64,000 nucleotides of DNA from a virus (IMGVR_UViG_3300021401_000005:9766-73765); one strand, 5' to 3'; numbered from the stretch's first letter, positions 34,150-62,042 are shown. The notes: generated by a model not told the origin, from the sequence alone. Made by a program: numbers and translations.

Positions 34150-34175
34150 GGTTTCGACTCCTGTAGGCCACCCAA

Positions 34176-34205
34176 ATATAGCGTGATTTGCACGAACTGC
34201 AAGAT
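34176..34205 (-). promoter_or_regulatory. Sigma70-like promoter overlapped by a TTGCA-N5-TGCAA operator (34188-34202)
   Basis: CTTGCA-N16-CTATAT on the - strand, Rhizobiales-type consensus. Confidence 0.7.
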
Positions 34206-34528
34206 CAGCCCTCGCGCCGCTGCCGCGCTTTCGCCTCAAGCCGCTCCGCTCGGCGGATCATGCCCGCAGCCCTTGCTCTCAATGACTGGGCTTCATGCTC
34301 CAAAATATCAGGGGCCAATTCCTCGGCCAAATAGCGCTCGCCGTCGAAGGCAAGCATCAGCTGGTCCGGATCGTTCAGCTCAATTGCGATCAGCTGACGC
34401 AGTCGGACCCGACCCAGGCGCTCGCGGGTTTTTTCCGGAAGGGCTTCCCAGACTGCGTCCTCAAGTGGGACGGCGCGGTGGACATCGGCAACGGCATCTT
34501 TGATCAGGTCCGAGATCCGGTCGCTCAT
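34205..34528 (-). CDS. Hypothetical protein
   Basis: 107-aa ORF, divergent from 34614. Confidence 0.55.
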   Translation of the reverse strand: MSDRISDLIKDAVADVHRAVPLEDAVWEALPEKTRERLGRVRLRQLIAIELNDPDQLMLAFDGERYLAEELAPDILEHEAQSLRARAAGMIRRAERLEAKARQRREG

Positions 34529-34540
34529 CGGTCATGCTCA

Positions 34541-34612
34541 CTTATCGTTTCGTTATGGTCCCGTTTATCGTAATGGCATGACGATAAGCAAGGCCGATAA
34601 AGGGACGATAAG
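34541..34612. promoter_or_regulatory. Array of five TTATCG/CGATAA boxes between divergent genes
   Basis: TTATCG at 34542 and 34565; CGATAA at 34582, 34595 and 34606. Confidence 0.65.
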
Positions 34613-34613
34613 C

Positions 34614-34955
34614 ATGCCTCGTGGATTAGGTAGGGTGCAGTTGGCGATCGTTGAGCGACTCCGGCTCGCGTCGGAAAGGAAGCTCGGCCGCTTCGTGGAA
34701 GATCAGACTCCAGTTCAGCTGGCGTGTCACATCTATGGGTATGAGGAGCCCCGAGAGGTCACTGACAATCAGCTGCAAGCGATCCGGAAGGCGCTCAGAT
34801 CTCTGTTGCGGTACTCGATCGTTACGACCCTCGATTACCGATCGCCAGAAGGCGAGCGGAGATACCAGCTCCACAAACGTGCGCTGTCGAGCCGCAAGCT
34901 TAAGCCGCGAGGGGATGGGCCGCCGAAGCCGAGTGGCCTGAAGGTCGTCAAATGA
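34614..34955 (+). CDS. Basic protein, possible winged-helix DNA-binding protein
   Basis: MPRGLGRVQLAIVERL...AIRKALRSLLRYSIV; adjacent to the box array. Confidence 0.5.
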   Translation: MPRGLGRVQLAIVERLRLASERKLGRFVEDQTPVQLACHIYGYEEPREVTDNQLQAIRKALRSLLRYSIVTTLDYRSPEGERRYQLHKRALSSRKLKPRGDGPPKPSGLKVVK

Positions 34956-35058
34956 GAGGGGATCGGTGATCTCGCGCGTTGACGGTAGCCCGGGCGTCAT
35001 CGAATCGTGCTACTCGCAAGGCGCTGAAAGGGAAGAAACCCCCCAAAGGAGAAACGTA

Positions 35059-35724
35059 ATGGCAAGAGGAAAGCAATTAGTCTGGATTACCCCCGTTCAT
35101 TTTGATCATGCAGGACGCCCCGTCGATCCCGATTACGGCGTCGATGAAGGCGTTGACCCAGGATACGGCATTCCGGGCGGCGGTCGCCCTCCTCACGTCG
35201 GCAACCGGCCTCCTGGCTCTTGGGGCGGGTTCCCTGGCCATCCTGACCAGGGGCTTCCCGGCGGCGGCTGGGGCGGTCGCCCGGTCGATCCGGGCTACGG
35301 CGTCGAGGGCGGCGGCGAGGCGGGTCAGCTCCCGGTCTTCCCGGTCGATCCCGAGCACCCGGATCAGGGTTTGCCGCCGGAAGTGCCACCGGGCATTCCG
35401 GAGCTTCCCCCAGGCACTATCTGGCCGCCGCTGCCGCCCAGCATTCCCGCCGGCAAGGCGATTGCTGTGGTCTGGATTTCCGGCGTCGGCTCGCGCTACG
35501 CGGTGATCGACATTCCGGAGCGCCCGGTCGATCCGGGCTACGGCGTCGGCGAAGAGCATCCGGACCAAGGCTTGCCTCCGACACGCCCTCGTCCGCCGAC
35601 CGCAGGCCAACCCTTGCCCCCGACCGGCCGCCCGCCGCGTCCTGGCCAAGGCCTGCCCCGCCCGCCAGGAGCCCCGCCGCGTCCGGATCAGGGCTTGCCT
35701 CCGACGGCCCAGCCGAAGCGGTAA
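35059..35724 (+). CDS. Pro/Gly-rich repeat protein (VDPGYG and PDQGLP repeats)
   Basis: AAGGAG RBS; VDP[DG]YG x4 and PDQGLP x4; own terminator. Confidence 0.75.
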   Translation: MARGKQLVWITPVHFDHAGRPVDPDYGVDEGVDPGYGIPGGGRPPHVGNRPPGSWGGFPGHPDQGLPGGGWGGRPVDPGYGVEGGGEAGQLPVFPVDPEHPDQGLPPEVPPGIPELPPGTIWPPLPPSIPAGKAIAVVWISGVGSRYAVIDIPERPVDPGYGVGEEHPDQGLPPTRPRPPTAGQPLPPTGRPPRPGQGLPRPPGAPPRPDQGLPPTAQPKR

Positions 35725-35774
35725 ACACCGCCGAATCGCTGAGGTCTCTCGCGCAGGGGCAGTAGGCGATTAAA

Positions 35775-35822
35775 GCGGCGGCGGCGCGTACCTCCCACGG
35801 CGCCGCCGCTGCCGACCTTTTT
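35775..35822 (+). terminator. Rho-independent terminator
   Basis: GCGGCGGCGGCGC...GCGCCGCCGCTGC followed by TTTTT. Confidence 0.65.
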
Positions 35823-35926
35823 ACGTCGAAATTGCGACGGATTTGGCGCCCCGTGCGAGTGAGTGTTATCAAACTGTGTTTGTAGAGTTGTAGGGGGGAC
35901 CTACAGCTGAAACACGGGATGATGTA

Positions 35927-36583
35927 ATGCACAAGCTTCTTTTGTCCGCCGCGATGCTCGCTGCGATCGGCGTTTCGCCCGCTCATGCGACGCTGCAAAT
36001 CGAGATCTTCGATAATGGGACGCTGATCGACAACGTCACGGGAATCACCACGGGCGCGGCGAGCCTCACCACCAACGACGCCAACTTCGCCAACATCACC
36101 ATCAACGCGCAGGGCTCACCCATCCTGCCCAATGCGGACCTGTCCAGCGTCACGCTCGACGCCACCGCTTCGGCCGGCTTCACGGGCTCGCACGAACTGA
36201 CGTTTGACGTCATTCAAAGCGCCGTGGCTGGGACCGGGAACACGCAATCGACCTTCACGGTCAACGGGCTGGTCAACGATCCCGGCCCGACAACCGAGCG
36301 CACGTTCGCAGATGGCGTGCTGCTCGCCTCGCACACGTTCCCTGTCGGGCTGCTTGACGGCTCTTTTGGCCCGGTCTCGGCAGCGACTGGTGCATTCACC
36401 GAGGATGAAATCCAATTCGCCGTCGACTTCACGGCAGCGAGGCAATCGTTCGGCGGTTCGGCCCAGCTAACGACTAGCATTCCAGAGACGAAGACCTGGG
36501 CGATGATGCTGCTCGGCTTCGGCCTGATGGCGTTCCTTGGTGTCAGGAAGTCCCGCAAGGACAGGTTGGCCGCATTCGCATAG
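35927..36583 (+). CDS. Secreted protein with PEP-CTERM (PEPxxWA-type) sorting signal
   Basis: Signal peptide MHKLLLSAAMLAAIGVSPAHA; C-terminus IPETKTWAMMLLGFGLMAFLGVRKSRK. Confidence 0.85.
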   Translation: MHKLLLSAAMLAAIGVSPAHATLQIEIFDNGTLIDNVTGITTGAASLTTNDANFANITINAQGSPILPNADLSSVTLDATASAGFTGSHELTFDVIQSAVAGTGNTQSTFTVNGLVNDPGPTTERTFADGVLLASHTFPVGLLDGSFGPVSAATGAFTEDEIQFAVDFTAARQSFGGSAQLTTSIPETKTWAMMLLGFGLMAFLGVRKSRKDRLAAFA

Positions 36584-36694
36584 GGGCGGGCGTAGGGCTG
36601 GGGCTTTTTCAACGAAATTTATCAATTCCGGACGCTCTATTTGCGTCCGGATTCCGGGGCGACGGCTTCGCCCATTAAAGGCATGGGTGACACT

Positions 36695-36982
36695 ATGAAG
36701 CGCATTCTTCTGGCAACGGTTGCATTGTTTGCTCTCGCGGATGTGGCTTACGCCGCTTCGGCTGCGGTCGGCGCGGCCACGTCCACGTCCAGCGTGGTCA
36801 CGGTCGGGCGCGGTGCTGGTTCGGCCAGCAATGCCTCGGCCGGTCTTGGCGTTGGCGTTTCCCGCCCCGGCGTTACGGTCGGCTTCGGCGCCGCGACCAC
36901 CAACTCGGCAGGCGCGAGCGTTGGCCATGCGGCCACCTTCACCACCGGCTCGGCGTTTGGCGCAGGCGCGGGCGTTCACTAA
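36695..36982 (+). CDS. Small secreted Ala/Gly/Ser/Thr-rich protein
   Basis: Signal peptide MKRILLATVALFALADVAYA. Confidence 0.75.
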   Translation: MKRILLATVALFALADVAYAASAAVGAATSTSSVVTVGRGAGSASNASAGLGVGVSRPGVTVGFGAATTNSAGASVGHAATFTTGSAFGAGAGVH

Positions 36983-36995
36983 GCCGTCGTCAAAC

Positions 36996-37031
36996 AGCCC
37001 CCGCTCCCAAGACCGGGCGGGGGCTTTCTTC
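36996..37031 (+). terminator. Rho-independent terminator
   Basis: AGCCCCCGCTC...GGGCGGGGGCT followed by TTCTT. Confidence 0.6.
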
Positions 37032-37052
37032 TCTCTCATGGAGGGCGATGTG

Positions 37053-37415
37053 ATGAAGCGATACGCACTTTTATTTCTGGGCATGACGCTGGCCGCGTCA
37101 GCCGCCACTGCCGGGTCAGTCAGTCTGCCTAAGCCTGGAGCGGCGCCGACTGCGGCAGGCCAGGGCGTCACCACCAATATCGGCGGCGGCACGGCAGTTG
37201 GCCATACGCCGACGATCTCGATCTCGACCTCGGCTGGCGCAGGAGCGAATCCAACGGCAAGCGCCTTTGGCAATTCGGCGGCGAGCAACCCAGGCAACGG
37301 CACGTCGCGGGCGGGCGCAGTGGCGCTGACCTCGGCGTCTGGCACGGGCGCAGGCGGCGCAGCCGCAGCGGTCGGCGCTGGCAATGTCAGCAATGGAGCG
37401 ACGACCACGCACTGA
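37053..37415 (+). CDS. Small secreted Ala/Gly/Ser/Thr-rich protein
   Basis: Signal peptide MKRYALLFLGMTLAASAATA; GGAGG RBS. Confidence 0.75.
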   Translation: MKRYALLFLGMTLAASAATAGSVSLPKPGAAPTAAGQGVTTNIGGGTAVGHTPTISISTSAGAGANPTASAFGNSAASNPGNGTSRAGAVALTSASGTGAGGAAAAVGAGNVSNGATTTH

Positions 37416-37425
37416 GGAGGGAGCG

Positions 37426-37794
37426 ATGAAACGATTGGGAATTGCGCTGGGCGCTGTCGCTCTGGCTAGCGCCGCTTACGCGCAGGACATCACCCGCGTC
37501 TTGCCCAACGGCTCGACGCTGACCATCGACAAGTCGCCGGGGACGATCACCGTGTCGAAGCAAGGCGTGTCGAATAGTGGCCGGGAGGTGTCGTGGTCGC
37601 GCACCAGAACCGACGCTGGCACGGTGTCGGCCAGCTCCACCGCATCAGCGACCGGCACGCACTTCGCTTATGCGAAGGCCACTGCCAGCACGTCGGAGAG
37701 GGTGACGCCGAGTGGTAAGGATATCGGCATTGCCAAAGCCCGCGCAGTGGCGATTGGCAATCTCACCACTTCAACTTCGGCGGTCACCAAGTAG
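37426..37794 (+). CDS. Small secreted Ser/Thr-rich protein
   Basis: Signal peptide MKRLGIALGAVALASAAYA; GAGGAGG RBS. Confidence 0.75.
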   Translation: MKRLGIALGAVALASAAYAQDITRVLPNGSTLTIDKSPGTITVSKQGVSNSGREVSWSRTRTDAGTVSASSTASATGTHFAYAKATASTSERVTPSGKDIGIAKARAVAIGNLTTSTSAVTK

Positions 37795-37815
37795 GCTGGT
37801 TCACGGGGATGAGCC

Positions 37816-38571
37816 ATGCGCAAAGCCGTCCAGTATCCCTTGGCATTCGGCGCGCCGATGCTGGGGATGCTGCTGCTCATCGATACGGTTGCTGAACCAG
37901 AATCGCTCGTCCGTCGCGCGCGGCAGATGGCCGACGACCTTGCATCGGCCGTCACCAAGGTAATCACCAAAGCCAGCTATCCCCACATGCCGTGGCCGCC
38001 CGCCGTGGTCGCCAAACTCAAGCCAATCGATCCTGACGACGTTCAAAAGAACGACAAGCACTTATTTTGGCGCACGGTGTACGACACCAACGAAATCCAT
38101 CGCGTTGAGGCCGATCCGCCGCCAGCAATGAATTTCAACACTTCGGTGGCTCAGCCGCCGTTGCCGCCAACGGTTACTTTCAACGATGGCGGCTCTTCGT
38201 CGGGCGGCGGCGCGACCGACTCGACCACGCCTTGCATGACGGCGATGGTCGGTGGCGTCTGCCCCGTGCCATGCTCATCGAATGATATTTCTCTGTTGTG
38301 CGAGGAAAAGAAGGTGGACACCGCCGCTGCCGATCTCTCCCCGGCCTTGCAGAAGCTGCTTGGCTTTGATGATCCCGGCGCCCCAGTGATCGGCGATCCG
38401 CCGCATGTCGGCGGCATTGGCGGCTTCGCAGGGGGTGGCGGCGGCGGCGCAGGCGGCGCAGGCACCATCCCCGAGCCGTCCACATGGGTGATGCTGATCT
38501 TTGGCTTTGGGCTGATGGCATGGATGAGTCGACGCTCCATCGCGCGGCGGGCTTCTTCGTCAATGGACTGA
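37816..38571 (+). CDS. Protein with PEP-CTERM sorting signal
   Basis: C-terminus IPEPSTWVMLIFGFGLMAWMSRRSIARR; hydrophobic N-terminus. Confidence 0.85.
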   Translation: MRKAVQYPLAFGAPMLGMLLLIDTVAEPESLVRRARQMADDLASAVTKVITKASYPHMPWPPAVVAKLKPIDPDDVQKNDKHLFWRTVYDTNEIHRVEADPPPAMNFNTSVAQPPLPPTVTFNDGGSSSGGGATDSTTPCMTAMVGGVCPVPCSSNDISLLCEEKKVDTAAADLSPALQKLLGFDDPGAPVIGDPPHVGGIGGFAGGGGGGAGGAGTIPEPSTWVMLIFGFGLMAWMSRRSIARRASSSMD

Positions 38572-38690
38572 TCGCGCTCGCGCTCAGCATGCTGATCTGG
38601 AGATTGACCGGCAACGTCCTGGGCTGGGCAGTCCTGTTCGGCCCAGGCGCCGCGCTCGTGATCCGGGGCATTGCCTTGCTGGTTCTCTGA
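38520..38690 (+). CDS. Possible small 2-TM protein
   Basis: Two hydrophobic segments, but overlaps the upstream gene by about 50 nt. Confidence 0.4.
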   Translation: MDESTLHRAAGFFVNGLIALALSMLIWRLTGNVLGWAVLFGPGAALVIRGIALLVL

Positions 38691-38785
38691 TCGTTCTCGA
38701 AGAACGAATCGCGAATGGGGACAACCGTCATCGGTCTATGGCATAAGCATGTCGGGCTAGCCGTTCGGCAGTGGGAGAATCCCCC

Positions 38786-39457
38786 ATGCCGTATGATCGT
38801 AAGCACTTCTTCGACACGGTCCGAAAGGATCTCTTTCGCGGCAACCTGACCCAGTCTCAGGTCGACGGGATGAACTATCTCCTCGAAGTGTGGGAGCTGC
38901 ATTTCGAGGCGGCCAATCCGCGCGACGGCACCAACTGGCTGGCCTACGCCCTGGCGACTTTCTTTCACGAAACCGCTGAGACGATGCAGCCGATCGAGGA
39001 ATACGGCAAAGGCTCCGGCAAGAGCTACGGCCAGCCGGCGGGGCCGCATGGCCAGCGATATTACGGGCGCGGCCACGTCCAGCTCACCTGGGAAGAAAAT
39101 TACAAAAACGGCCAGAAATTCCTCAAAGACCGCTACAACGTCCACGCCAACATCCACCCTGAAGCGCATCTGATGCTGCACCCGCAGACGTCAGCCCTGG
39201 TCAGTTATGACGGGATGATTCATGGCTGGTTCACGGGAGTCGGGTTGCCCAAATACTTCAATGCGACGGTCGAGGACCCGCGCAACGCGCGCCGGATCGT
39301 CAACGGCACCGACAAGATGGACCTCATCGCTGGCTACTATTCCAAGTTCAAGAAGGCGCTGAAACAGGTGCCTGCGGCGCCGCCGCTAGAAGAGGCTGAG
39401 CTGCCTGGGCTTCCCGAGTGCCCGTGCATGCCCGAGCCGACAGCGACGACCTCCTAA
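38786..39457 (+). CDS. Endolysin, glycoside hydrolase family 19
   Basis: AYALATFFHET...PIEEYG...YYGRGHVQLTWEENY...ARRIVNGTD. Confidence 0.9.
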   Translation: MPYDRKHFFDTVRKDLFRGNLTQSQVDGMNYLLEVWELHFEAANPRDGTNWLAYALATFFHETAETMQPIEEYGKGSGKSYGQPAGPHGQRYYGRGHVQLTWEENYKNGQKFLKDRYNVHANIHPEAHLMLHPQTSALVSYDGMIHGWFTGVGLPKYFNATVEDPRNARRIVNGTDKMDLIAGYYSKFKKALKQVPAAPPLEEAELPGLPECPCMPEPTATTS

Positions 39458-39463
39458 AATGAG

Positions 39464-39685
39464 ATGGCGCATGTCAGCGGCATCATCGCGATCTGCGGCG
39501 CGCTGGCGATCCTTGGGGTTTTTGCGGCGATGGACTTCTATGCGGTGCGCCAATGCTTCTCGCTAGCGCACAGCGGGATCGCCCAGACCGAGCTGTGCGC
39601 GCCGGAGCACATCTTCCGGACCGCGCTAGAAATCGGGGGGATGGCGATCGGCATGTACGGCGTCGCCCGCGTGATGAAGTCGTGA
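39464..39685 (+). CDS. Small membrane protein of the lysis module
   Basis: Hydrophobic termini; follows the endolysin. Confidence 0.55.
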   Translation: MAHVSGIIAICGALAILGVFAAMDFYAVRQCFSLAHSGIAQTELCAPEHIFRTALEIGGMAIGMYGVARVMKS

Positions 39686-39990
39686 GCCCTGGCGATCTGA
39701 TCAACGCGCCGCCGTCGCCCAAAGTTCTCGATTATCCAGGCGCCATGGGGATCGGGATCGGCATCGTATTCACGGCGGCCTTGCTGTTCGTCGCCGGCAA
39801 GTTCGATCCGACCCACGGCACGCTGACGATCTCGATCTTGGTGACGGTTTCGTTTTTCGCGGTCGTCGCAGTGTGCCTGTTCTATACAATCCCCGTGGAC
39901 GAAGCGACGTCGATGGTCATCGGCGCGCTGGTCGCAGCGTTCGGCGCCGTGGTGGCGCATTGGCTTGGTCGCCCGAGGGATAAGCCATGA
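39682..39990 (+). CDS. Holin candidate (3 TM)
   Basis: GTG overlap start; three hydrophobic helices, basic C-terminus. Confidence 0.6.
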   Translation: MSPGDLINAPPSPKVLDYPGAMGIGIGIVFTAALLFVAGKFDPTHGTLTISILVTVSFFAVVAVCLFYTIPVDEATSMVIGALVAAFGAVVAHWLGRPRDKP

Positions 39991-40169
39991 GCCTGGGAAC
40001 CCTCCTCCTCATCATCCTGATCATCATCCTGATTGGAGGCGTCGGCCCGCGCTTCTACTCCGGCGCACCCTGGCAACCGGGCTACGGCTTTGGCAACGGC
40101 GGCATCAGCCTGATCGGCATCCTGCTGATCATCGTCGTCGTCTTGCTGCTGACAGGCAGGCTAGGCTAG
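39987..40169 (+). CDS. DUF3309-like small membrane protein
   Basis: MSLGTLLLIILIIILIGG...GYG...GILLIIVVVLLLTGRL. Confidence 0.75.
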   Translation: MSLGTLLLIILIIILIGGVGPRFYSGAPWQPGYGFGNGGISLIGILLIIVVVLLLTGRLG

Positions 40170-40198
40170 TTTCGATCCACGCCCCTCTGCGGGGCGAC
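40169..40198 (-). CRISPR. Solitary type I-C-like CRISPR repeat (no array, no cas genes)
   Basis: The - strand reads GTCGCCCCGCAGAGGGGCGTGGATCGAAAC: GTCGC 5' end, CGCCCC/GGGGCG stem and GCGTGGATCGAAAC 3' end typical of I-C repeats. Confidence 0.75.
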
Positions 40199-40403
40199 TC
40201 GGTTTTAAAAGAGGGAGACCGCGCTTCCGTAGGAGGTAAAAATCTATTGAAGGCGGTCTCCCGAAGTGCCCCCAGGCGAGGCGGCGCCGGGGGCAAAGCC
40301 GGGTTGTGGGACCCGGCTCAATTCGCGTGTAACGCAAATTTGAACAATTTGCACGTTCTGTTTTAGCGCTAGGCCTGGGAAAAATTACCTAACCGCGTTG
40401 AGA

Positions 40404-40434
40404 AGGAGGGGCGGGTTAGGTGCCCGCCCCTCCT
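40404..40434 (-). promoter_or_regulatory. 12-bp hairpin with CACCUAA loop (GCCUA family; may also act as a terminator)
   Basis: AGGAGGGGCGGG-CACCTAA-CCCGCCCCTCCT on the - strand. Confidence 0.65.
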
Positions 40435-40455
40435 AAATGCACGGCCTGCCACGCC

Positions 40456-40525
40456 TGCCGTGCCTTGCCGAGCGACGCCGCGCCTAACCGCGCCATGCCG
40501 CGCCGAGCCCAGCTCTGCCATGCCT
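40456..40525. repeat. Array of 14 pentamers, consensus NGCCN
   Basis: tgccg tgcct tgccg agcga cgccg cgcct aaccg cgcca tgccg cgccg agccc agctc tgcca tgcct. Confidence 0.85.
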
Positions 40526-40540
40526 GCCACAGCTTATGCC

Positions 40541-40906
40541 TTACCCTTCAAGCGAAATCAACATGTCCGCGATGCTGTAGGCCGTGTCCGCGTCCTTCGT
40601 CGACCAGTCGCTGATCGGGCTCTCGCCCCGCCGATGGATCGCCAGCGCGACCATGAGAATGGCATCTCGCCGCGCCTCGGAGCGCTTCTTGGCATTGCCG
40701 TTGGCGGCGGCGGCGATGCCGTGGTCTGCGTCGCCCAGGATCTCCTTTTCGCTTGGCGGGATGGCGCCGAGCATGCGCTTGAAGGCGGGGATCTCGCGCG
40801 TGGGCTCGCGCGTCGGGGTTGCGGGGATGCCGACGCCGGCGCCGGCGCGAACCTCGGCTTGTCCTTCGATGGTGGGTCGCCACGTCTGGTTCAACTCGTC
40901 ACTCAT
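40541..40906 (-). CDS. Hypothetical protein
   Basis: AAGGAG RBS; last gene of the leftward operon. Confidence 0.6.
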   Translation of the reverse strand: MSDELNQTWRPTIEGQAEVRAGAGVGIPATPTREPTREIPAFKRMLGAIPPSEKEILGDADHGIAAAANGNAKKRSEARRDAILMVALAIHRRGESPISDWSTKDADTAYSIADMLISLEG

Positions 40907-41720: not shown

Positions 41721-41761
41721 CGACTCATTCCTTGTTGGGGGCTAGGCGCGCCCCCGTTAGC

Positions 41762-46772: not shown

Positions 46773-46925
46773 TTTCGACTCCTGCGGGGGACGACCCTGA
46801 CTGGGGCCGCCCCCCGACCTCCCGTGGATCGGCCAGCTATTGGCGCGCGCCTTAGCGGCCTGCCTCGCTGCCGTTCCCGACGCCAGCGCTCGATTCGGCC
46901 GAACAGCTAACCGATGGGCGAATCC

Positions 46926-50200: not shown

Positions 50201-50216
50201 ATGCCGGGGTAGGCTG

Positions 50217-51542: not shown

Positions 51543-51543
51543 T

Positions 51544-53756: not shown

Positions 53757-53768
53757 TATGACTGGGGC

Positions 53769-54008
53769 ATGGACTCGGCCGCAACGCTGGCTCACGACCT
53801 CTCGCCACGCGAGCGCGAATGCCTGCTGTGGGTTGCGCGCGGCAAGACCTATGCGGAAGCCGCGCTGATTATTGGAATGTCGTTCGGCTCGGTGAAAACC
53901 TACCTCGACAATGCGCGCTACAAATTGAATTGCGCCACCCTGGCCCAGGCGACAGCCAAGGCGGTCACCCTTGGCATTTTCACCGCTGACGATCTGGCAG
54001 GGCGCTAG
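53769..54008 (+). CDS. LuxR-type HTH regulator (DNA-binding domain only)
   Basis: LSPRERECLLWVARGKTYAEAALIIGMSFGSVKTYLDNARYKL. Confidence 0.88.
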   Translation: MDSAATLAHDLSPRERECLLWVARGKTYAEAALIIGMSFGSVKTYLDNARYKLNCATLAQATAKAVTLGIFTADDLAGR

Positions 54009-54331
54009 CCCAGCTTGAGCGCCTTAGCGCGCTCGCGCACTTCCTTCGCAAAGATCCACCAGTTCTCGTCCTGCGGCAGGCTGGCGACATAGCTCAACTT
54101 GAATCTTTGATGATACTTACGCGCAAACTCATCGTCGCCTGTCGCATGCGCCAGGAGCGCGAGCGCGAGTTGAGCTGGGCCGCTTCCGCCGTAACCCCAC
54201 TCGAAACCGTCAGGGGAGTGGTTGTCGAGGTCGAGGCGCAGGGGAAGTTCCCTCGTGTCAACCTCGACGTGAGTGGAGCCCTTCTCGTCGCGATAGCCGA
54301 TGTAAAGATGGTTGCGCCGCCGCCAGCTCAC
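54005..54331 (-). CDS. DUF6166-like protein
   Basis: NHSPDGFEWGYGGSGPAQLALALL. Confidence 0.75.
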   Translation of the reverse strand: MSWRRRNHLYIGYRDEKGSTHVEVDTRELPLRLDLDNHSPDGFEWGYGGSGPAQLALALLAHATGDDEFARKYHQRFKLSYVASLPQDENWWIFAKEVRERAKALKLG

Positions 54332-54534
54332 GCGGGCCTCCTGTCATCGTCGGGGGTCAGCGGGCCGTGCGGCAGCGACCAGCGGTTCGACCACAACACT
54401 TTGCGCAACTTGTAGGGCAGCGCGTCCTTGTCGATGGCCGCAAGGCCGAGATTCACCGCCTCGCGCAAGACCTCGTACTCATTGTCTGTAAGGCGCACGC
54501 GCCAGCCCCGGCGCATCCGGGCGACTTCCATCAC
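54328..54534 (-). CDS. Hypothetical protein
   Basis: GGAGTCGA RBS. Confidence 0.6.
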   Translation of the reverse strand: MMEVARMRRGWRVRLTDNEYEVLREAVNLGLAAIDKDALPYKLRKVLWSNRWSLPHGPLTPDDDRRPA

Positions 54535-54812
54535 TGTTTCGACTCCTCAAGGTTGAGAACCACGCGCGTCCCGTCTTTGAAGTTGAGAACCCCATCCGAG
54601 AACATCGAGCGCAGGAGAATCCCCGCCGTCATGCGCTTGGTTCCATTATTGCCGTCGCTCGGGATCAGCTCCTCGGCATCGAGCGCCTTGAACAGCTCGA
54701 CCATTTTCGCGAACGAAAACTTGCCGTCGTCGCCCATTGACGCCTCGCTGATGAAGCGGTCGAAGGCATCGCCCGAATGCTTGGGGTATTGGCGGCGCCT
54801 AATCCGGCTCAC
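54531..54812 (-). CDS. Hypothetical protein
   Basis: Coupled ORF. Confidence 0.6.
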   Translation of the reverse strand: MSRIRRRQYPKHSGDAFDRFISEASMGDDGKFSFAKMVELFKALDAEELIPSDGNNGTKRMTAGILLRSMFSDGVLNFKDGTRVVLNLEESKQ

Positions 54813-55240
54813 GGCAGATACTCCGCCGCCATCTGGCGCAGCACGCTGATGTGGTACGGGCGGGCGAAATGCTCATACGCCGCGCGGGCGAGCGTTTCGG
54901 CGTCGCCGCCTTTAGCGTGCTCTTTCATCCACGCGCGGACCGTCTCGGGCAAGGCGTCTTCCTGGGTCCAATCCGGCTCATCTGGCTTTTGCTTTGCCAT
55001 GAAATCGGCGTTGAGCTGCTTGAACTCGGGATCAACCACGCCGCCGTCAGGCGCCTCGCCAGCGTGGACGATCACCTTGGTGACGCGCGCGGGATCGTTC
55101 TCGGTGACCCACGGGAAGTCAGCGCTGCGCGCCATGTCGAGCGCTTTGGCTTGCGCCTCGGCGAGCCCCTCGGACACGACCTCGACTGTCGCGGTCTGGA
55201 GCGGGTATCGGGTCAGATCGATGGTGTAGCGCTGCCTCAT
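54809..55240 (-). CDS. Hypothetical protein
   Basis: GAGGA RBS; coupled. Confidence 0.6.
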   Translation of the reverse strand: MRQRYTIDLTRYPLQTATVEVVSEGLAEAQAKALDMARSADFPWVTENDPARVTKVIVHAGEAPDGGVVDPEFKQLNADFMAKQKPDEPDWTQEDALPETVRAWMKEHAKGGDAETLARAAYEHFARPYHISVLRQMAAEYLP

Positions 55241-55361
55241 AGACGTCCTCGTTTCTTTCGCACAACTGGAGTTCGATCTACGCTGAGCGCATCAAATACC
55301 GCGCCGCTTATCAGCCCGATTATGTTCACAACCAGCAGCACCAAAACGATTTCTAAGATCG

Positions 55362-55844
55362 TCAATTCGCCCTCCCGCGATCGTCCATCAGGAGGTTGTC
55401 GAAGATGCCAGAGGAGATCCGGTCCTCGGGACCGTCCAGACGGCGCAGCTCGCGCGTGCGTCCCTGGAAGTCGCGCACAATCTCCCAATGACGGTAAATG
55501 TGCGTGCCATCGCGAGAGGCGGCCATGGCGATGACCGCCTCTTTGCGGTCAGCGCGCTCGCTCGGCGGCGGTCCCGTGTATTCCGGCCCCACCTCTGCGG
55601 CTGGCAGCACGCTGTACCAAGCCTCGGTCAGCAGGCTGTAGGCGGTCGCGCTTTGCTCGCGCATCAGCGCTCGCATGAGTTCGACCGTCATCTGCTTTTG
55701 GTCGCTGTTCGCCCACGGCGTGGCGATGACCTCAAGCTTGCCCTGCGAGTGGACGAGCCAGAGCGGCGTCAGCTCCTCGCGCGTGCCGATCAGGACGCGC
55801 CGCGCCTGATCCTCGGCGAGTTTGATCATGTGCTCTAGGTCCAT
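55362..55844 (-). CDS. Hypothetical protein
   Basis: YSLLTEAW...PPSERADRKEAV. Confidence 0.6.
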   Translation of the reverse strand: MDLEHMIKLAEDQARRVLIGTREELTPLWLVHSQGKLEVIATPWANSDQKQMTVELMRALMREQSATAYSLLTEAWYSVLPAAEVGPEYTGPPPSERADRKEAVIAMAASRDGTHIYRHWEIVRDFQGRTRELRRLDGPEDRISSGIFDNLLMDDRGRAN

Positions 55845-55845
55845 C

Positions 55846-56151
55846 TCAGCCCTCCGATCCGCGCTCGTCCGCGTCATCGCCAAAGATCGCATTGCGCGCG
55901 GGATCGAACTCGACGCCGAGATCCATCGCGCGACGCTCCAGCGGACTGACCCGCGCGTACATATTAAACTTGGGCGGCGTTTCCTCCTGGGTCTCCCAAT
56001 ATTCGCGCAGCTCGGACAACGTGCGCTCGACGCCAATCAGGGCGTGCCCTAGCCCCTTCCAGTCGTCCTGCGTCAGGTGATGCACAGCGTTCACTGAAAA
56101 CCCTGCCAAGGCCTTCGCGCGCGCGATGGCGTCGCTTTTCGTTATTGTCAT
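55846..56151 (-). CDS. Hypothetical protein
   Basis: GGAGAGTCGA RBS. Confidence 0.6.
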   Translation of the reverse strand: MTITKSDAIARAKALAGFSVNAVHHLTQDDWKGLGHALIGVERTLSELREYWETQEETPPKFNMYARVSPLERRAMDLGVEFDPARNAIFGDDADERGSEG

Positions 56152-56221
56152 CGTCTCGACTCTCCACCGGGCGGATTGCCCGCGACCGCGCCACGAAACG
56201 TCGAGGCGCGCGCGCTGGCAG

Positions 56222-58225
56222 TCACGCAGCGGATTTGATAATCGCTAGGAGATCAGCCGGAAGTTGGCGATGGTACTTGAGGACGATCTTGCGCCCCAGG
56301 GCGGCCTGCTTGGCGGTGAGCCGGGGGGACGTGGCCAGCGATTTGCCGACATGCGTATCCATGCGGTTGAACCCCATGTCATCCAAGCTGGCGGCGCCGT
56401 CGCAGATGCCAGCCAGCGCACGCAGAGCCGCGTGGACGGCCAGGACGGCCTCTGGGCTAATCTTCACCGCCTCCTCGGCTACTTGCGCCTGGGTGACCGC
56501 CCTAGTGGCCGGAGGCCCCGCCCTATCGGCCGGGGGAACGTCAACCGGCTCGACGTCTGGGAGCCGTTCCTTGTCGTCGAGGGCCGCGTCGAGGTTGCGC
56601 TGCTTCTCGACGAGGATCTCCGCCGCTCTCTGTTCGTAGCTCCCGTCAAGCACAAGATGCTGGATCAGCACTGACTGATCCTGCCCCCTCCTGTGCGCGC
56701 GGTCCTCGGCCTGCGTCATATTGCCGGGGACGACATCAAGCTCCCCGAAAACGACGAGGCTCGCCGCTGTCAGCGTGATGGCCACGCCGGCCGCTTTGAT
56801 CGAGCCGATAAACAGCGTCTTGGCCGGGTTCGTCTGGAACGCATCCACCTCGGCCATGCGGTCCCGCTGCGCCGTCTCGCCGGTCACCATCACGGAGGCC
56901 GCGCCGAAATGCGCCTTGAGCGCGTTCGCCACGTCGTGGTGCCAAATCATCACGATCGTCTTGCCCTGATTCTCAATGCACTCTTCGAGGTGCGTGATCA
57001 GCTGGGGAATCTTGGCGACCGCGACCTCATGACGAACACGGCTGATCTCGGCGAAGTCCACCGCTGCGGCCTCACGCAGGGCCGCCACGGCGTTCCGATA
57101 GTCGGCTGGGTCCTCTGACGCCTTGGACAGCTCAACGGCCAGCCGTAGGGCTTCCAGGCGCTTCTCGGACGCTGCCTCGGCAGCGCTCTCCCGCGCCAGC
57201 GCTTTCTTGGCGGCGGCGCCCTCGGGGGCGATAACCACGATCTGGCGCCGCTTCGCCGGCAGTTCCTTGAGGACATCGCGCTTAAGGCGGCGAATCATGA
57301 TCGACGCGCGAAGCTTCGCCTGTAGCTCATCGAGGTTCGACGCGCCGGACACGTCCCAGCCATAGGAGCCGTGATAGCCCGCGCAGTAGCGCGTCACGAA
57401 GCTCTTCCAATTGGCGCCCAGGCCTTTCTTGTCGAGCGCCTGGACGATCGGCCAAAGCTCGATGGGCCGATTGAGGAACGGCGTTCCGCTCAGAAACACC
57501 CGGCGCCGCGCCTTGAGCGGCTCGATCTCCCAGGCGCGCGCCTTCGCGTCCCACTTGCCGAAAACCAGCGAGGTGCGCTGCGCCTTCTTATTTTTCAGGT
57601 AGTGAAATTCATCCGAGACAAGCATGTCCCACTGGCGCGCACGCAACGCATCGTGATGCTTGCTCAACATTTCATAGTTGATGATCACGACATCTGTCGC
57701 CGGAAACGCGCCATTGGCCACGCCGACAGACATGTCGCGGACCAGCCATTTCTTGGCCTCGCGCTTCCAATTGAGCTTGGGCGTGGCTGGGCAAATGATC
57801 AGCACGCTCTTGATGCTCTGATCGGCGTTGATGATGCCCAGAGCCTCGATCGTTTTGCCGAGTCCCATTTCGTCGCCGATCAGAACGCTCGGGCGATTCA
57901 TCGCGTAAGCGACCGCCGCGCGCTGGTACGCGTCAAACTTGCAGCCCTCGGGGGCTGGGATATCAACGTCTGCATCGGCCGCGCGGGAGGCCTCGATCGC
58001 CGCTGCATCGCGATCGTGCTTGGCTTGGCGTTGCGCGGTGAGGTTCGCAGCTAGCTCGCCGGGGTCCTTCCCTAGCTGGGCCGCGATTGACGCGTCCCCA
58101 GTCCACCAATATTTGTTGACGGGATCGAACCGGAAACCGGCGGCCTTAACGAGGTCTTTCGTCGCGTAGTCAAAGGGAAACCGGGCGATGAATTTGCCGC
58201 CCTCTTGCGTGACTGTGATGCTCAT
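56222..58225 (-). CDS. SNF2-family (SMARCAL1/HARP-like) helicase
   Basis: [42 protein letters not shown]; start 58225 after GGAGTCGA. Confidence 0.9.
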
Positions 58226-58248
58226 GAACTCGACTCCAGAAAGGGAAA

Positions 58249-58303
58249 ACCGGGCGGTAGGCGCCGCCCGGTCTGATATGGCACTAAACGCAAAAACCGT
58301 CAA
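58249..58303 (-). promoter_or_regulatory. Promoter TTGACG-N17-CATATC plus CGCCUA-loop hairpin
   Basis: ACCGGGCGG-CGCCTA-CCGCCCGGT immediately downstream of the -10. Confidence 0.7.
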
Positions 58304-58611
58304 CCTTGCGACAGTTTTTTCTGCGCCTCATCCTCAATATATCCCCTCGCATAGGCCTTGCGCGCGTAACTCAGGGCGCAGCGCAGCGTGCAGAACGGCT
58401 CATAGCCGCCCAGCCAGGACTTGCCGTCCCAAACCTCGATGTGGCGGATTGATGCGCCATCGGCGCGCTTGCGCACCGCGTCGCTTCTGACGATGCGTAG
58501 GTTGCCCTCATAAACAGCCTCCGCCGCCCCCTGGACCCAACATAGGGTCACAGTGTGAGTGTGCCGCTGGCCATAACGCTCGCCGCAATGGCCGCAAACC
58601 GGGCGAGTCAT
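58300..58611 (-). CDS. Cys-motif hypothetical protein
   Basis: CGHCG...FCTLRCA. Confidence 0.6.
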
Positions 58612-58901
58612 CGGATCGATCCCGCCGGGAACTTGAACCGCACCAGCCAGGACGGGCCGCGCGAGTTGCGCAAGTACGCAAGCGGCTGGATGTGCCGATC
58701 GGCGACGCCCATATACTCGTGACGCTCCCACGCGGTCCCCAGAGCGGCCCGCCAGCGGCGTCCGTACACCTTGCGCCACGCCACCATCGCTTCTAGCTCG
58801 ACGTCGGTCAGCGGGCGCGTGATGCGCCCCGCCTTGTAGCCGGCCATGTCATCCCAGCGCACGCGGTACGTCAGGCGCGAGGGCGTTCCTTCGTCGCTCA
58901 T
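58608..58901 (-). CDS. Hypothetical protein
   Basis: YGRRWRAAL...LRNSRGPSWL. Confidence 0.6.
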   Translation of the reverse strand: MSDEGTPSRLTYRVRWDDMAGYKAGRITRPLTDVELEAMVAWRKVYGRRWRAALGTAWERHEYMGVADRHIQPLAYLRNSRGPSWLVRFKFPAGSIR

Positions 58902-59191
58902 GACAGCGCCTCGTTGCTGACCCAGCTATCGCGCGGCGCCGCCCACTTGGGGTTGCCATGCTGCTCGACAATGCGCTCGATCTTGCGCTGATTCAGCTCC
59001 TCATATTCGGTCTTCGCGATCTCGACCGCCGGATTCGGATAGACGCTCGGGCTGGCGGGTTTCATGCTGAACCCGTAGCTCGTCACGCGGTGCGCGTCGC
59101 ACTGTATCCACGCGCTGAGATAGACGCGGCTCTCGCTCCCGCGAAACACCGTGAAGCGACCGTTCGTCGCCTTGAAATAGCGGAGCGGCAT
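58898..59191 (-). CDS. Hypothetical protein
   Basis: GGAG RBS; coupled. Confidence 0.55.
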   Translation of the reverse strand: MPLRYFKATNGRFTVFRGSESRVYLSAWIQCDAHRVTSYGFSMKPASPSVYPNPAVEIAKTEYEELNQRKIERIVEQHGNPKWAAPRDSWVSNEALS

Positions 59192-59391
59192 CAGATCAAC
59201 TCCGCATCGGGCGAGCCGCAGGCGGTCCGCGCCTCTTCCAGCGTGGGGTAAATCTCGCCCAGCTGGGGGACATTTCGGCGCAAAAAGCGGATCGGCTGGA
59301 AGCCGTAGGTCTGCGGCACCATCGAGCGCGCAGCCACAGAACCGGGCTGCACATCCCGCACTTGCTGGATGTACCAAACATTCAATTTCAT
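59191..59391 (-). CDS. Hypothetical protein
   Basis: GGAGTCGAAACC-ATG. Confidence 0.6.
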   Translation of the reverse strand: MKLNVWYIQQVRDVQPGSVAARSMVPQTYGFQPIRFLRRNVPQLGEIYPTLEEARTACGSPDAELI

Positions 59392-59464
59392 GGTTTCGAC
59401 TCCTTGTCGGGCAAGAGCGCCCGCGAGGCGGCGACGATCGCTCGACGCCGTCCCGCTCGCGTTC

Positions 59465-60391
59465 TCAGGCTGCTAGAAGCGCAGGCGCGCCCGTGGACGC
59501 CTCTTCGTCCGCGTCCGCCTCCTCGGCCGCCGCCGCGCCTCGGAGCCAGTCTACAGCCTTGCTGGCCGCGCTGGCGGCGGTGATGATCGCCGTTTCCCGC
59601 TCCTCAAGCAGCGAAACCCAAGTCTCGATGTAGGAAGCAGGAGCCTCGCCCATATCGATCCCCCACTCCGCACAGACGAACGCGCTGGTTAGCTCCGCGA
59701 TCAATTCCTCGGCCGCATAGGTCCGGTCGCCAAACTTGGCCCCAAAGGTCCGGTTGAGGCGCGAGGGATGTCCACTGGCGTGGCCCATCTCATGGAACAT
59801 GGTCGCGTAGTAGGGATGGGCGCCCTTGAACTGCGCGAAAGGCGGCATCTCGATGCGGTCGAGCAACGGCGAATATTGCGCCTTGCTGCCCTGCTCAACG
59901 AACCGAATCTCGGTCGCCGCAACGAAGGCGTCGAGGTCACCATCGCGCCCGTCCGGATTGACCGGCGCATGCTGGCGCGGCGCGCCAATGCCCAGGACTG
60001 AGTCCGGCAGCCCGTCGCACTGCGCGACGTTGAAAACCGGGTACGCCTTGAGGAAACCAATGCTCTTGTGCTTGTCGGGGTCCTGCCGATCGCGCACGAC
60101 CATTTTCTTGACGAAGATCACGGTGAGGCTCTTCTCGCCCGCGCGAACGGTTCCGCCGGCCGCCTTCGCTTGCTTGAACGTGAGCCAGCGCGGACCCCAG
60201 CCGTTCGCCTCGGCATGCGACCAGAGCAGGATGACGTTGGCGCCGCTGTAGGCGTGTCCGGTGACCGCGTTGCGCGGCATCACGCTTCCGTGAGCCTGGA
60301 CGCGCTCGGACCATGGCTTGCGCCACGGCGCAACGCCGGTCTTGAGCATGGCGAGGATTTTGTCGGTGATTTCGCGGTGCATGTCGCGCAT
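59465..60391 (-). CDS. ardC: ArdC antirestriction protein (ssDNA-binding plus zincin-like domain)
   Basis: GVAPWRKPW, YSGANVILLW, WLTFKQA, VFNVAQ, FHEMGHASGHPSRLNR, YAAEELIAEL. Confidence 0.9.
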   Translation of the reverse strand: MRDMHREITDKILAMLKTGVAPWRKPWSERVQAHGSVMPRNAVTGHAYSGANVILLWSHAEANGWGPRWLTFKQAKAAGGTVRAGEKSLTVIFVKKMVVRDRQDPDKHKSIGFLKAYPVFNVAQCDGLPDSVLGIGAPRQHAPVNPDGRDGDLDAFVAATEIRFVEQGSKAQYSPLLDRIEMPPFAQFKGAHPYYATMFHEMGHASGHPSRLNRTFGAKFGDRTYAAEELIAELTSAFVCAEWGIDMGEAPASYIETWVSLLEERETAIITAASAASKAVDWLRGAAAAEEADADEEASTGAPALLAA

Positions 60392-60412
60392 TGGGTTCGA
60401 CTCCAAAAAGTT

Positions 60413-60468
60413 AGGGGCGGGTTAGGCGCCCGCCCCTCTCATATAGCAGCGTCTGCAAAAGATGTCAC
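60413..60468 (-). promoter_or_regulatory. Promoter GTGACA-N16-CTATAT with near-operator and CGCCUAA-loop hairpin
   Basis: AGGGGCGGG-CGCCTAA-CCCGCCCCT; TTGCA-gacgc-TGCTA overlaps the spacer and -10. Confidence 0.7.
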
Positions 60469-60549
60469 CATCACGACGCTTTTTATTTTCAGATGCGCCC
60501 GCTCGCCATCATGAACAGCGCGAAAGCAAGCGACAGGCCGGTGCAAAGT

Positions 60550-60834
60550 TCAGCCACGGCGCACCTCCGTTAGCCGGATGGCGACCGTCCCGCCGCGCAC
60601 GACGCCCTGCCCCGCCTCGCAGCGGTAGACGCCAATTGCAGCCTGGAACGCGCACGGCGCGCACTGCATCAGGAACGAGGATTCGGCCTCGTCGCCATAG
60701 CGGCGGCGCGCGGCAAGGTTGGCGACATGGCGCGCAACCGTGAACGCATCGCCCTCAATCGCCACGGTGCAGAATCGGTCGCTCTCGCTCGGGTCAGCGG
60801 CGAGGTGGACGACATCGGCGGTGAAGCGGGTCAT
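60550..60834 (-). CDS. Hypothetical protein
   Basis: GGAGG RBS. Confidence 0.55.
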   Translation of the reverse strand: MTRFTADVVHLAADPSESDRFCTVAIEGDAFTVARHVANLAARRRYGDEAESSFLMQCAPCAFQAAIGVYRCEAGQGVVRGGTVAIRLTEVRRG

Positions 60835-61053
60835 TTAGCCCACCTCCCCGGCGACGACGATTCCAAGCTCGGCGAGCGACGTCTCGACCTGTAGCCGGCA
60901 GGCCGCCCGCTCGGCCGACTTGCGCGCGGTGAACGTCTTACCCTCGCGCATCTCGATCTCGCGCCCGTCGCGCAGGAAGAGCGCATAGCGGCGCTCGCCT
61001 TTCGAGGGATAGCGCGGGTTCAGGTCCGCGTAGACCTTGAGGCGGCACGTCAC
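60835..61053 (-). CDS. Hypothetical protein
   Basis: GTGA coupling. Confidence 0.5.
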   Translation of the reverse strand: MTCRLKVYADLNPRYPSKGERRYALFLRDGREIEMREGKTFTARKSAERAACRLQVETSLAELGIVVAGEVG

Positions 61054-61451
61054 GAGCGCACCGCCCGCTCGATGTTGCCCCACGGGGCTTGGGCGTAATC
61101 AACGCCCGCGTGCGGCAGGCGCGCCTCAAGGTGACCGATCACCCGGCGCGCCTCGGAGGCCTCCCAGGCGTCATGCTCGCAGGCTTGGTAGGCGTAGCAA
61201 TCGACGATCTTGCCGGCGGCGCCAGCGGCCAGCGTCAGCGGCTCGAAGCGATAGGCCTCGACGTCCGCCAGATAGCGCGCATGCTCTTCTGCGTGGCGCT
61301 TGGGCATGGCGTAGCGGTAGGCTACGCTCTTGACGTTCTCGCCCCAAAGCAGGCGGCCCAGGAGGTTCGCCGGCCGGGTTGAGACGCCCAACTCCAGGGC
61401 GATGGTGACAATGGCGTCAATATCGCGTTTAGAGACAACAAAAGCAGACAT
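61050..61451 (-). CDS. Conserved phage early hypothetical protein
   Basis: MSAFVVS...LWGENVKSVAYRY...CYAYQACEH; directly downstream of the ribozyme. Confidence 0.7.
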   Translation of the reverse strand: MSAFVVSKRDIDAIVTIALELGVSTRPANLLGRLLWGENVKSVAYRYAMPKRHAEEHARYLADVEAYRFEPLTLAAGAAGKIVDCYAYQACEHDAWEASEARRVIGHLEARLPHAGVDYAQAPWGNIERAVRS

Positions 61452-61472
61452 GTTTCGACTCCTCAGATTGGC

Positions 61473-61541
61473 TGACGCTTAGGCTCATCAGCTGGCGCAT
61501 CACGCCAGGACGCGAGAGGTCGAGCCCCTCGTGTTTCGCCT
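61473..61541 (-). ncRNA. Type II hammerhead ribozyme
   Basis: The - strand reads AGGC GAAA CACGAGGGG-CTCGA-CCTCTCGCG TC^ CTGGCG-TGATG-CGCCAG CTGATGA GCCT AAG CGTCA. It has the intact CUGAUGA and GAAA core, a GUC cleavage triplet, three stems, and loop I UGAUG complementary to the 3' tail CGUCA (pseudoknot). Confidence 0.9.
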
Positions 61542-61723
61542 TATTGCTCGACGCTGAACTGCCCCACCTTGTTGCCGTTGGCGTCCACCAGCGCTCCAAC
61601 CGTCTCGGTTTCGCCGCTGAACGCCAGCCGGTCGGTCACGGTGCGGAGGAGGCGCTCTATCTCGCCCAGGCAATCGTCCTCGAAAGCGGCGTTGTCGCAG
61701 GTAATCTCAATGCGCAATTTCAT
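61541..61723 (-). CDS. Conserved small phage protein
   Basis: ITCDNAAFED...LVDANGNKVG. Confidence 0.7.
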   Translation of the reverse strand: MKLRIEITCDNAAFEDDCLGEIERLLRTVTDRLAFSGETETVGALVDANGNKVGQFSVEQ

Positions 61724-61726
61724 GGT

Positions 61727-61966
61727 TCAAGCCCTCCCGCGCAGGAGGGCATGAATCCGGCGAGCCTCGGCGTTCGACACGCGAGACGAACGGCGCGCGC
61801 TGGCGATAGCCTTGTCGATCGCAATCTCTTGCTCGCGACGGGCGATGAAACGCTCGGCCGCATTGGACCCAGCGAAACCAGCGACCATCACGCCGCGATC
61901 AAAAACAAGCCAATCGTGCTCGGCGTGCTCGCTCCACTCGTTAAACTTCATCTCAAAACGGGACAT
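61727..61966 (-). CDS. Hypothetical early protein
   Basis: AAGGAGTCGAGATC-ATG at 61966. Confidence 0.65.
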   Translation of the reverse strand: MSRFEMKFNEWSEHAEHDWLVFDRGVMVAGFAGSNAAERFIARREQEIAIDKAIASARRSSRVSNAEARRIHALLRGRA

Positions 61967-61985
61967 GATCTCGACTCCTTTTTCG

Positions 61986-62042
61986 GGCGCCGTAGGCCAG
62001 CGCCTGTCCTCCAAATAGTGGGTTGGGATACACGCTGTCAAG
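61986..62042 (-). promoter_or_regulatory. Promoter TTGACA-N17-CTATTT plus GCCUA-loop hairpin
   Basis: GGCGCTG-GCCTA-CGGCGCC downstream of the -10. Confidence 0.7.

Follow-up and report, generated by a model that had tools for sequence, protein, structure and literature searches.

Short RNA hairpins that keep one loop on stems of changing sequence were found in the leaders of early genes in a 64,000-nucleotide (nt) stretch of viral DNA, IMGVR_UViG_3300021401_000005:9766-73765, which is referred to in its entirety as the window. It corresponds to bases 9766 to 73765 of a 73.8-kb phage record in IMG/VR, with an estimated completeness of 94% and a G+C content of ~63%. Rightward late genes fill the first 34 kb of the window, and a leftward early operon lies at 54 to 63 kb, whose genes include those for an SNF2-type helicase and an ArdC-like anti-restriction protein. 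Judged from the sequence, the core of the hairpin family is formed by the sites at 58249-58272, 60413-60437, and 61986-62004, together with a copy just left of the window. Our preferred, though tentative, reading is that these core elements may be the 5'-leader hairpins of modular early units, where they would protect and insulate the message while a putative partner reads the loop.

Leader hairpins of the early operon

The three core hairpins within the window are encoded on the minus strand, each upstream of a ribosome site with the sequence GGAGUCGA. The G-type hairpin (61986..62004) has a 7-bp stem and the loop GCCUA and lies 7 nt 5' of the ribosome site (61978-61971), which precedes an ATG at 61966. 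The E-type hairpin (60413..60437) has a 9-bp stem and the loop CGCCUAA, followed by AACUUUUU and the ribosome site (60404-60397); the ATG at 60391 opens the ArdC-like gene. The D-type hairpin extends over 58247..58274, with the core stem at 58249-58272, the loop CGCCUA, a U-rich tract, and the ribosome site (58237-58230), and the ATG at 58225 opens the SNF2-type helicase. The additional hairpin, at 8551-8568 of the genome (minus strand), is situated 1.2 kb left of the window and, in common with the other core copies, comes with promoter boxes and a ribosome site. Minimum free energies (MFE, in kcal/mol) were compared with 200 shuffles per site, giving -21.3 (z -4.8) for 58247-58274, -20.1 (z -3.4) for 60413-60437, and -13.8 (z -1.9) for 61986-62004.

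Conservation of the leaders was followed in approximately 10 related phage records, which were found with the ArdC-like protein and the helicase as queries (protein identity of 65 to 92%); seven of these relatives were obtained whole or nearly whole for comparison. The clade thus amounts to about 10 closely related records, and counts of orthologous leaders share ancestry. The GCCUA loop was present in the ArdC leaders (type E) of 9/9 distinct homologues on nine different stems, and the leaders in the helicase slot (type D) had CGCCUA(A/C) in 9/9 distinct homologues on eight different stems. In the first-cassette leaders (type G), the loop was kept in 10/10 distinct copies, with five different stems and seven different first genes behind them. 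Across 27 hairpins there were 24 distinct stems and not one unpaired stem position, and positions 2 to 7 accepted both G-C and C-G; the pairs were counted per sequence, as varying loop lengths break the register of a MAFFT alignment. Loops overall conformed to (C)GCCUA(A/C), 5 to 7 nt in length, and the distance from the 3' end of the hairpin to GGAG was 3 to 16 nt. When the nine ArdC leaders were aligned, the invariant columns were portions of two promoter-like boxes in addition to GCCTA and GGAGTCGA. Covarying stems under a fixed loop are what one would expect if the loop of an RNA hairpin is recognized.

The original prediction had grouped seven minus-strand sites, and all seven were read as it had described them. 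Its argument that a fixed loop on variable stems suggests recognition was upheld, the stems covarying and the loop being kept in a strand-specific, RNA-level manner; loop conservation had been set beforehand as the decisive point, and the loop was retained in the helicase, ArdC-like, and first-cassette leaders. Six of the seven sites fold, with energies of -9.6 to -27.3 kcal/mol, the exception being the stemless "minimal copy" at 34162, and the placement of six sites just upstream of GAGUCGA was confirmed. The grouping into a single family did not survive the comparison: the sites at 41737, 40404, and 34162 fail in relatives, and 61471 is part of a hammerhead. The statement that the loop is of no recognized kind agrees with the Rfam scan, in which the core hairpins had no match in the window, nor in 54000-64000 at E values up to 10, and the hairpin family was not described in the literature searched.

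The loop word and the ribosome-site word were also examined statistically. GCCTA was counted 89 times in the window, compared with 62.9 +/- 7.4 in shuffled sequence, and 0/100 shuffles reached 89. It was the top-ranked 5-mer in the 45 nt before GAGTCGA starts in four related genomes, being present in 24/54 leaders against 1.46 expected, although these leaders are partly homologous and do not represent 54 independent trials; its reverse complement, TAGGC, appeared in 1/54. RCCTA was found in 6/15 GAGTCGA leaders of the window genome. Hairpins in general were mildly enriched, with 72 perfect stems of at least 7 bp against 58.2 +/- 5.6. GAGTCGA itself is a general ribosome-site signature of the phage (25 copies in the genome against 14.1 +/- 3.5 in shuffles), with 15 of the 25 copies preceding starts of open reading frames, and GGAGTCGA was used in all relatives checked. 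GANTC, the CcrM/HinfI-type site, was depleted approximately two-fold genome-wide (172 against 367 +/- 13 in shuffles), and the enriched ribosome-site word GGAGTCGA contains it. Both the loop word and the ribosome-site word may also occur in one stretch near the 5' end of 16S rRNA. On inspection by eye, the loop showed no consistent complementarity to the 3' end of 16S rRNA or to the Shine-Dalgarno region.

Promoter-like boxes precede the hairpins. On the minus strand, those of the G cassette (62013..62041) are TTGACA at 62041-62036 and CTATTT at 62018-62013, and the same boxes stand before 10 distinct copies in relatives. Those of the E cassette (60440..60468), GTGACA at 60468-60463 and TATATG at 60445-60440 with a 17-nt spacer, are among the invariant columns of the nine-leader alignment. 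Those of the D cassette (58275..58303) are TTGACG at 58303-58298 and CATATC at 58280-58275, again with a 17-nt spacer. Altogether, TTGAC-type and TATnTn-type boxes 16 to 17 nt apart were found before 30/30 distinct promoter-proximal copies, and we take them to resemble the alphaproteobacterial housekeeping consensus. The stem-loop begins 0 to 11 nt past the -10 box. If transcription is assumed to start 7 nt after that box, the start of each of the 30 copies would lie at most 5 nt ahead of the stem base or at most 7 nt into the stem, leaving 4 to 8 bp in the RNA and CCUA at +7 to +12. Palindromes of the form TTGCA-N5-TGCAA overlap some -35 regions, at 34185-34202 (minus strand), at 7315-7329, and at about 8590-8610 of the genome (minus strand), and may be operators.

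The narrow distance from the -10 box in all 30 copies could also be read at the DNA level, with the non-template GCCTA at +7 to +12 acting as a pause or escape element in early elongation and the inverted repeat being secondary. The stemless copy at 34162, which also follows promoter-like boxes, would agree with such a signal, but a DNA word has no need of the compensatory stem changes found in 27/27 copies, and the motif also occurs far from promoters, in hammerhead tails. Moreover, a short 5'-terminal hairpin gives the narrow spacing automatically. We therefore consider a DNA-level signal highly improbable.

A U tract, defined as at least four T in the next 10 nt, followed the hairpin in 8/9 E and 7/9 D copies, which are internal units, and in 0/10 G copies, which head the operon, and 0/2 copies of type A, the remaining core type. 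The one E copy lacking it is the ArdC leader of relative G009, which also lacks promoter boxes. In the list of terminator-like structures, the E copy of the window was included and the D copy was not. From the sequence it would appear that the hairpin can also stop transcription arriving from upstream, and that this is not its conserved role.

Such signals bear on processive antitermination of the nut/boxB or put kind, in which the nascent loop would recruit a phage protein or bind the polymerase for readthrough of downstream terminators. The hairpins lie directly behind promoter-like boxes, the D and E copies resemble terminators, so that an operon studded with them could need antitermination, and a fixed loop on variable stems is the pattern of boxB. 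The layout fits poorly: several copies occur per operon, each 3 to 16 nt from a ribosome site, an arrangement that suits control at the 5' end or of translation better than processive antitermination. Promoterless copies exist (the G009 ArdC leader and the hammerhead-derived hairpins), and the U tract is missing from 10/10 G, 2/2 A, and 2/9 D copies. The loop of boxB is a GNRA-like pentaloop, which the phage loops are not. A boxA-like word, allowing up to three mismatches to the consensus, was counted 19 times against 17.9 expected, with none beside a hairpin. No small early protein turned up that was arginine-rich or assignable in another way, no search having been aimed at arginine-rich peptides. 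The analogy to lambda nut/boxB drawn in the original prediction was not supported, given a loop of another type, boxA at chance level, and no basic early protein identified; antitermination of the lambda type is decidedly unlikely, and less likely than leader hairpins that protect and insulate the message.

All related records share one arrangement of the early operon: a promoter and hairpin before the first gene, one to three genes headed by hammerheads, a promoter and hairpin before ArdC, other folded leaders, and a promoter and hairpin before the helicase. The gene beginning MSRESDLRPF is found behind a promoter and hairpin in relatives G003 and G006 and behind a hammerhead in G005. Exchange of this kind would be expected if the elements were promoter/terminator cassettes similar to the PeSLs of T4-type phages, that is, linkers around shuffled small genes which recombination homogenizes and in which the loop is carried along without a reader. 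The first cassette stands before seven different genes, one gene is found behind different devices in sister phages, and the cassettes are alike over ~100 bp, down to individual words of the spacer (TTTTGCA, for example). The phage also encodes RecT and, like it further inside the genome, a YqaJ-type exonuclease. PeSLs combine strong sigma70-like promoters with terminator stem-loops, end in a Shine-Dalgarno sequence, and undergo modular shuffling (PMC2839356, PMC4122927). Homogenization should copy the stems as well, but these differ within the genome and between orthologous cassettes, the loop alone being fixed. In addition, the PeSL stem-loop lies between or over the promoter boxes rather than past the -10 box, and the U tract is not universal here. 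A PeSL-like origin would explain the shuffling and leaves the fixed loops over drifting stems unexplained; as an account of the hairpins it appears improbable.

Type II hammerhead between small early genes

The site at 61471-61492, originally predicted to be a plain hairpin, proved to belong to a type II hammerhead at 61480..61541 on the minus strand, of which it forms the 3' portion. The order of the ribozyme is AGGC-GAAA, stem III, GUC with a predicted cut after 61509, stem I, CUGAUGA, and GCCUA. The type II assignment is based on the core CUGANGA and GAAA, an NUH triplet, and three stems in type II order. In the alternative hairpin at 61471..61492 (minus strand), the CUGAUG core pairs with the tail, with the loop AGCCUAAG, 8 nt before the ribosome site (61462-61455) and an ATG at 61451; its MFE is -9.6, with a z score of -1.35.

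A script search identified 21 more copies in relatives, so that 22 were aligned, including the window copy, which has one mismatch in stem III; one further copy on contig L034, outside the 21, was seen by the Rfam model. In the alignment, 98.4% of cells were paired against 80.0% in shuffles. Twelve of the 13 pairs of stems I and III vary on both sides, with a covariation score of 0.502 against 0.142, a value reached by 0/500 shuffles. Stem II comprises four invariant pairs that never covary, and GCCU(A) is likewise invariant. The tail re-pairs onto CUGAYG, leaving GCCUA in the loop, in 15/21 copies of the relatives against 4.1 +/- 1.7 (maximum 10) with shuffled tails; the refolded pairing survives changes such as U-G to C-G, and the window copy shows the same refolding in the fold of 61471-61492. 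Messages remaining after the predicted cleavage would thereby also carry a GCCUA-loop hairpin 5' of the ribosome site.

With the Rfam type II model RF02276, four L034 copies scored 21.2 to 28.1 bits, the threshold being 37. At Rfam gathering level no hammerhead was found in the window or in 93.7 kb of relatives, and the scan of 54000-64000 at E values up to 10 returned Hammerhead_3 only, with 25 bits against a threshold of 48.5. Type II hammerheads below threshold occur across the clade, 1 to 5 per record, between small early genes; on L034 they are at 638-701, 1314-1377, 1794-1860, 2270-2337, and 4317-4376. Each starts at or adjoining the upstream stop codon and ends 5 to 25 nt before GGAGUCGA. 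Hammerheads with these ends may already be contained in Dataset S1 of PMC3088659.

Because the loop word CGCCU complements AGGCG at the 5' edge of the hammerhead, RNA-RNA pairing was considered, in which the loops would either descend from hammerhead tails or base-pair with hammerhead 5' strands or released 5' fragments, tuning cleavage or tethering messages. The same five letters occupy the same slot in both devices, stems I and III covary while stem II never does, and in 15/21 copies the catalytic core is tied up by the alternative hairpin, making ribozyme switching plausible. Nevertheless, the promoter-proximal loops yielded no conserved partner for pairing, and the coding DNA of the GC-rich genome contains scattered complements of 8 to 11 nt, which showed no visible excess in a count without shuffle control. 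A trans-acting enzyme-type core (CUGANGA, closed stem II, GAAA) was sought in four genomes (G000, G001, G005, and G006) and no plausible hairpin was obtained; two matches to the enzyme core were rejected, as they sit in long unpaired coding stretches. Pairing of this kind is accordingly rated as very improbable. An antisense "anti-loop" RNA was also entertained, as the noncoding stretch after the leftward operon contains 10 nt complementary to the E loop (~40489-40480) and 8 nt complementary to the loop of the 40404 hairpin (40394-40387). The idea was dropped in view of dozens of equally long complements within coding DNA, counted without shuffle control.

Sites outside the core family and genome context

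The hairpin at 41737..41755 (minus strand) is intercistronic, without a promoter, and has the loop GCGCCUA (MFE -14.4, z -2.6). In relatives G001, G003, and G006, the same slot holds a hairpin with the loop GUGCGGC (3/3 comparable leaders), and going by this comparison the site is probably not a true family member. At 40404..40434 (minus strand), a 12-bp hairpin with the loop CACCUAA (MFE -27.3, z -6.0) lies in a noncoding stretch after the leftward operon. It stands outside any leader and is unique to the window genome, the slot being empty in 5/5 relatives examined. Nine nt past it, GGUUAGGU at 40387-40394 (minus strand) complements its loop, and by complementarity a pseudoknot between the two is possible. 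The third site, 34154..34170 (minus strand), has an unstructured GCCUA (34168-34164) located 2 nt before GGAGUCGA (34161-34154) and after TTGCAG-N16-TATATT. No stem was present (z +0.78, with 161/200 shuffles folding equally well), and the homologous leaders read GCCTA in G001 and GTCTA in G002.

A further 8-bp hairpin was located at 7210..7233, with the plus-strand loop ACCUAAGC, 20 nt upstream of a minus-strand gene of 71 amino acids (6975-7190). In the leader of that gene, the loop reads GCUUAGGU, the complement. The gene runs antisense in the rightward late block, with a third-position G+C of 0.92 and its own AGGAGG site, and has homologues in G005 and G007. Tracts of GGC-NN pentamers stand directly before the 40404 and 7210 hairpins, at 40440-40545 (minus strand) and 7234-7300 (minus-strand reading), respectively.

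Other folded early leaders before GGAGUCGA include a two-hairpin module at 59402-59475 (minus strand) for a gene of 66 amino acids, a folded module at 56162-56230 (minus strand) for one of 101, and a long GC hairpin at 46781-46830 (minus strand) for one of 119. Similar sequence was found for all three in G001 to G003, with no match in Rfam.

The window contains no tRNA gene and no Rfam match at gathering level. Two relatives have tRNA genes, G007 at L094:19833-19905 (minus strand, 61 bits) and G005 at L087:3047-3119 (minus strand, 59 bits). No close relative of the window phage was present in the collection of named phages, where weak DNA similarity was limited to helicase/primase (replication) genes of Caulobacter, Brevundimonas, and Sphingobium phages, and the scan of genome contigs gave no prophage relative. 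Among distant homologues, neither the GAGTCGA site nor the hairpins were seen for ArdC (at most 50% identity, 35 loci), and for the helicase (at most 46% identity, 7 loci) GAGTCGA, the hairpins, and hammerheads of the type seen here were all absent.

Proposed role and closest known systems

In the proposed unit, a host-type promoter would come first, the GC-rich stem-loop would form within a few bases of the RNA start, and GGAGUCGA would follow 3 to 16 nt further on. The stem would cap the 5' end against decay that depends on it and may shield the ribosome site from upstream context. Where a U tract is present, as in most D and E copies, the hairpin could also halt read-through from the preceding unit. 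The RCCUA loop appears to be under selection of its own and most likely docks a putative protein or RNA partner, which would set the stability or translation of all early messages jointly. For the internal cistrons, the type II hammerhead is predicted to cut just 5' of the gene, which would leave a 5'-OH end starting with the stem I hairpin. The freed core could then refold and present a GCCUA hairpin again just 5' of the ribosome site.

Several points weigh against this proposal. Protection of a 5' end requires no specific loop, so the role of the loop hangs on the putative partner; of 20 early proteins scanned, 16 had no Pfam match and none was RNA-binding-like, and PHROGs gave nothing relevant. 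The original prediction had placed four sites after sigma70 promoters, and, conserved as the boxes are in 30/30 copies, the promoter scanner, using an E. coli consensus, called 0/5 of the proposed promoters in the window. The start position assumed above would deprive D and E copies of part of the stem, and transcripts started at the promoter would themselves run into their own hairpin and U tract. Three of the seven sites listed originally (41737, 40404, and 34162) behave unlike the core. As to the hammerheads, an AGGC...GCCU stem II is a common trait of type II hammerheads in general, the Rfam consensus opening with AgGCGAAAC, and hammerheads with the same two ends were found in 11 unrelated genomes by the genome contig scan. 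Their GCCUA may thus reflect a ribozyme constraint alone.

A more far-reaching reading, which we regard as rather unlikely, is that RCCUA is the operator of a phage-wide regulon of early messages, with one putative reader binding both the 5' hairpins and the refolded hammerhead tails. If true, such a regulon would couple the switching of ribozymes on and off, 5'-end protection, and translation of every early unit, and would be the equivalent in nature, under regulation, of the synthetic insulator built from a ribozyme and a hairpin. The purpose of phage ribozymes and folded modules between early genes has been in question since 2011. That a plain hairpin and a hammerhead share one slot, both displaying the same five letters 5' of the ribosome site, and that these letters stay fixed over drifting stems, offers a concrete and testable handle on the function of such punctuation marks. 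Should a dedicated reader exist, it would form part of a new RNA-protein or RNA-RNA control pair and provide a ready-made insulator part for GC-rich bacteria.

Among known systems, lambda nut (boxA and boxB, bound by the N protein) likewise has short hairpins soon after early promoters, with a fixed loop on a stem that may vary, a pattern that implies a reader of the loop. It differs in its loop sequence and in having an adjacent boxA and an N protein, no N-like protein having been found here. Furthermore, the phage has many copies per operon, tight against ribosome sites and in some cases promoterless. The PeSLs of T4-type phages are cassettes of ~100 bp that combine a sigma70-like promoter with a GC stem-loop and a Shine-Dalgarno sequence; they lie next to small early genes that vary, and transcription arriving from upstream can be terminated at the stem-loop (PMC2839356, PMC4122927). 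In the present phages, which are unrelated to those and GC-rich, the stem-loop follows the -10 box and belongs to the unit's own RNA, the loop is conserved while the stems covary, and hammerheads alternate with the cassettes.

The element at 61471-61492, within a type II hammerhead between small early genes, resembles the clustered hammerheads of phages and prophages (PMC3088659; RF02276). In that study, hammerheads were described on either side of single genes in prophages, and processing into gene-length messages was proposed (Perreault et al. 2011, PMC3088659). Unlike known type II hammerheads, the present copies score 21 to 28 bits against 37, have an invariant stem II, and usually refold their tail onto the core; the plain leader hairpins differ from hammerheads in having no ribozyme core.

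A 5'-terminal stem-loop reportedly stabilizes mRNA in Escherichia coli, as attributed to Emory in 1992 and to related papers. In the synthetic insulator RiboJ, a ribozyme is followed by a hairpin 5' of the ribosome site, and this terminal hairpin is reported to probably boost mRNA stability and expose the ribosome site (PMC6206723). Stabilizers of the ompA/papA type and RiboJ share with the phage elements a hairpin near the ribosome site, located at the very 5' end or left there by cleavage. No specific loop is required in those systems, whereas in the phage leaders the loop is the most conserved part.

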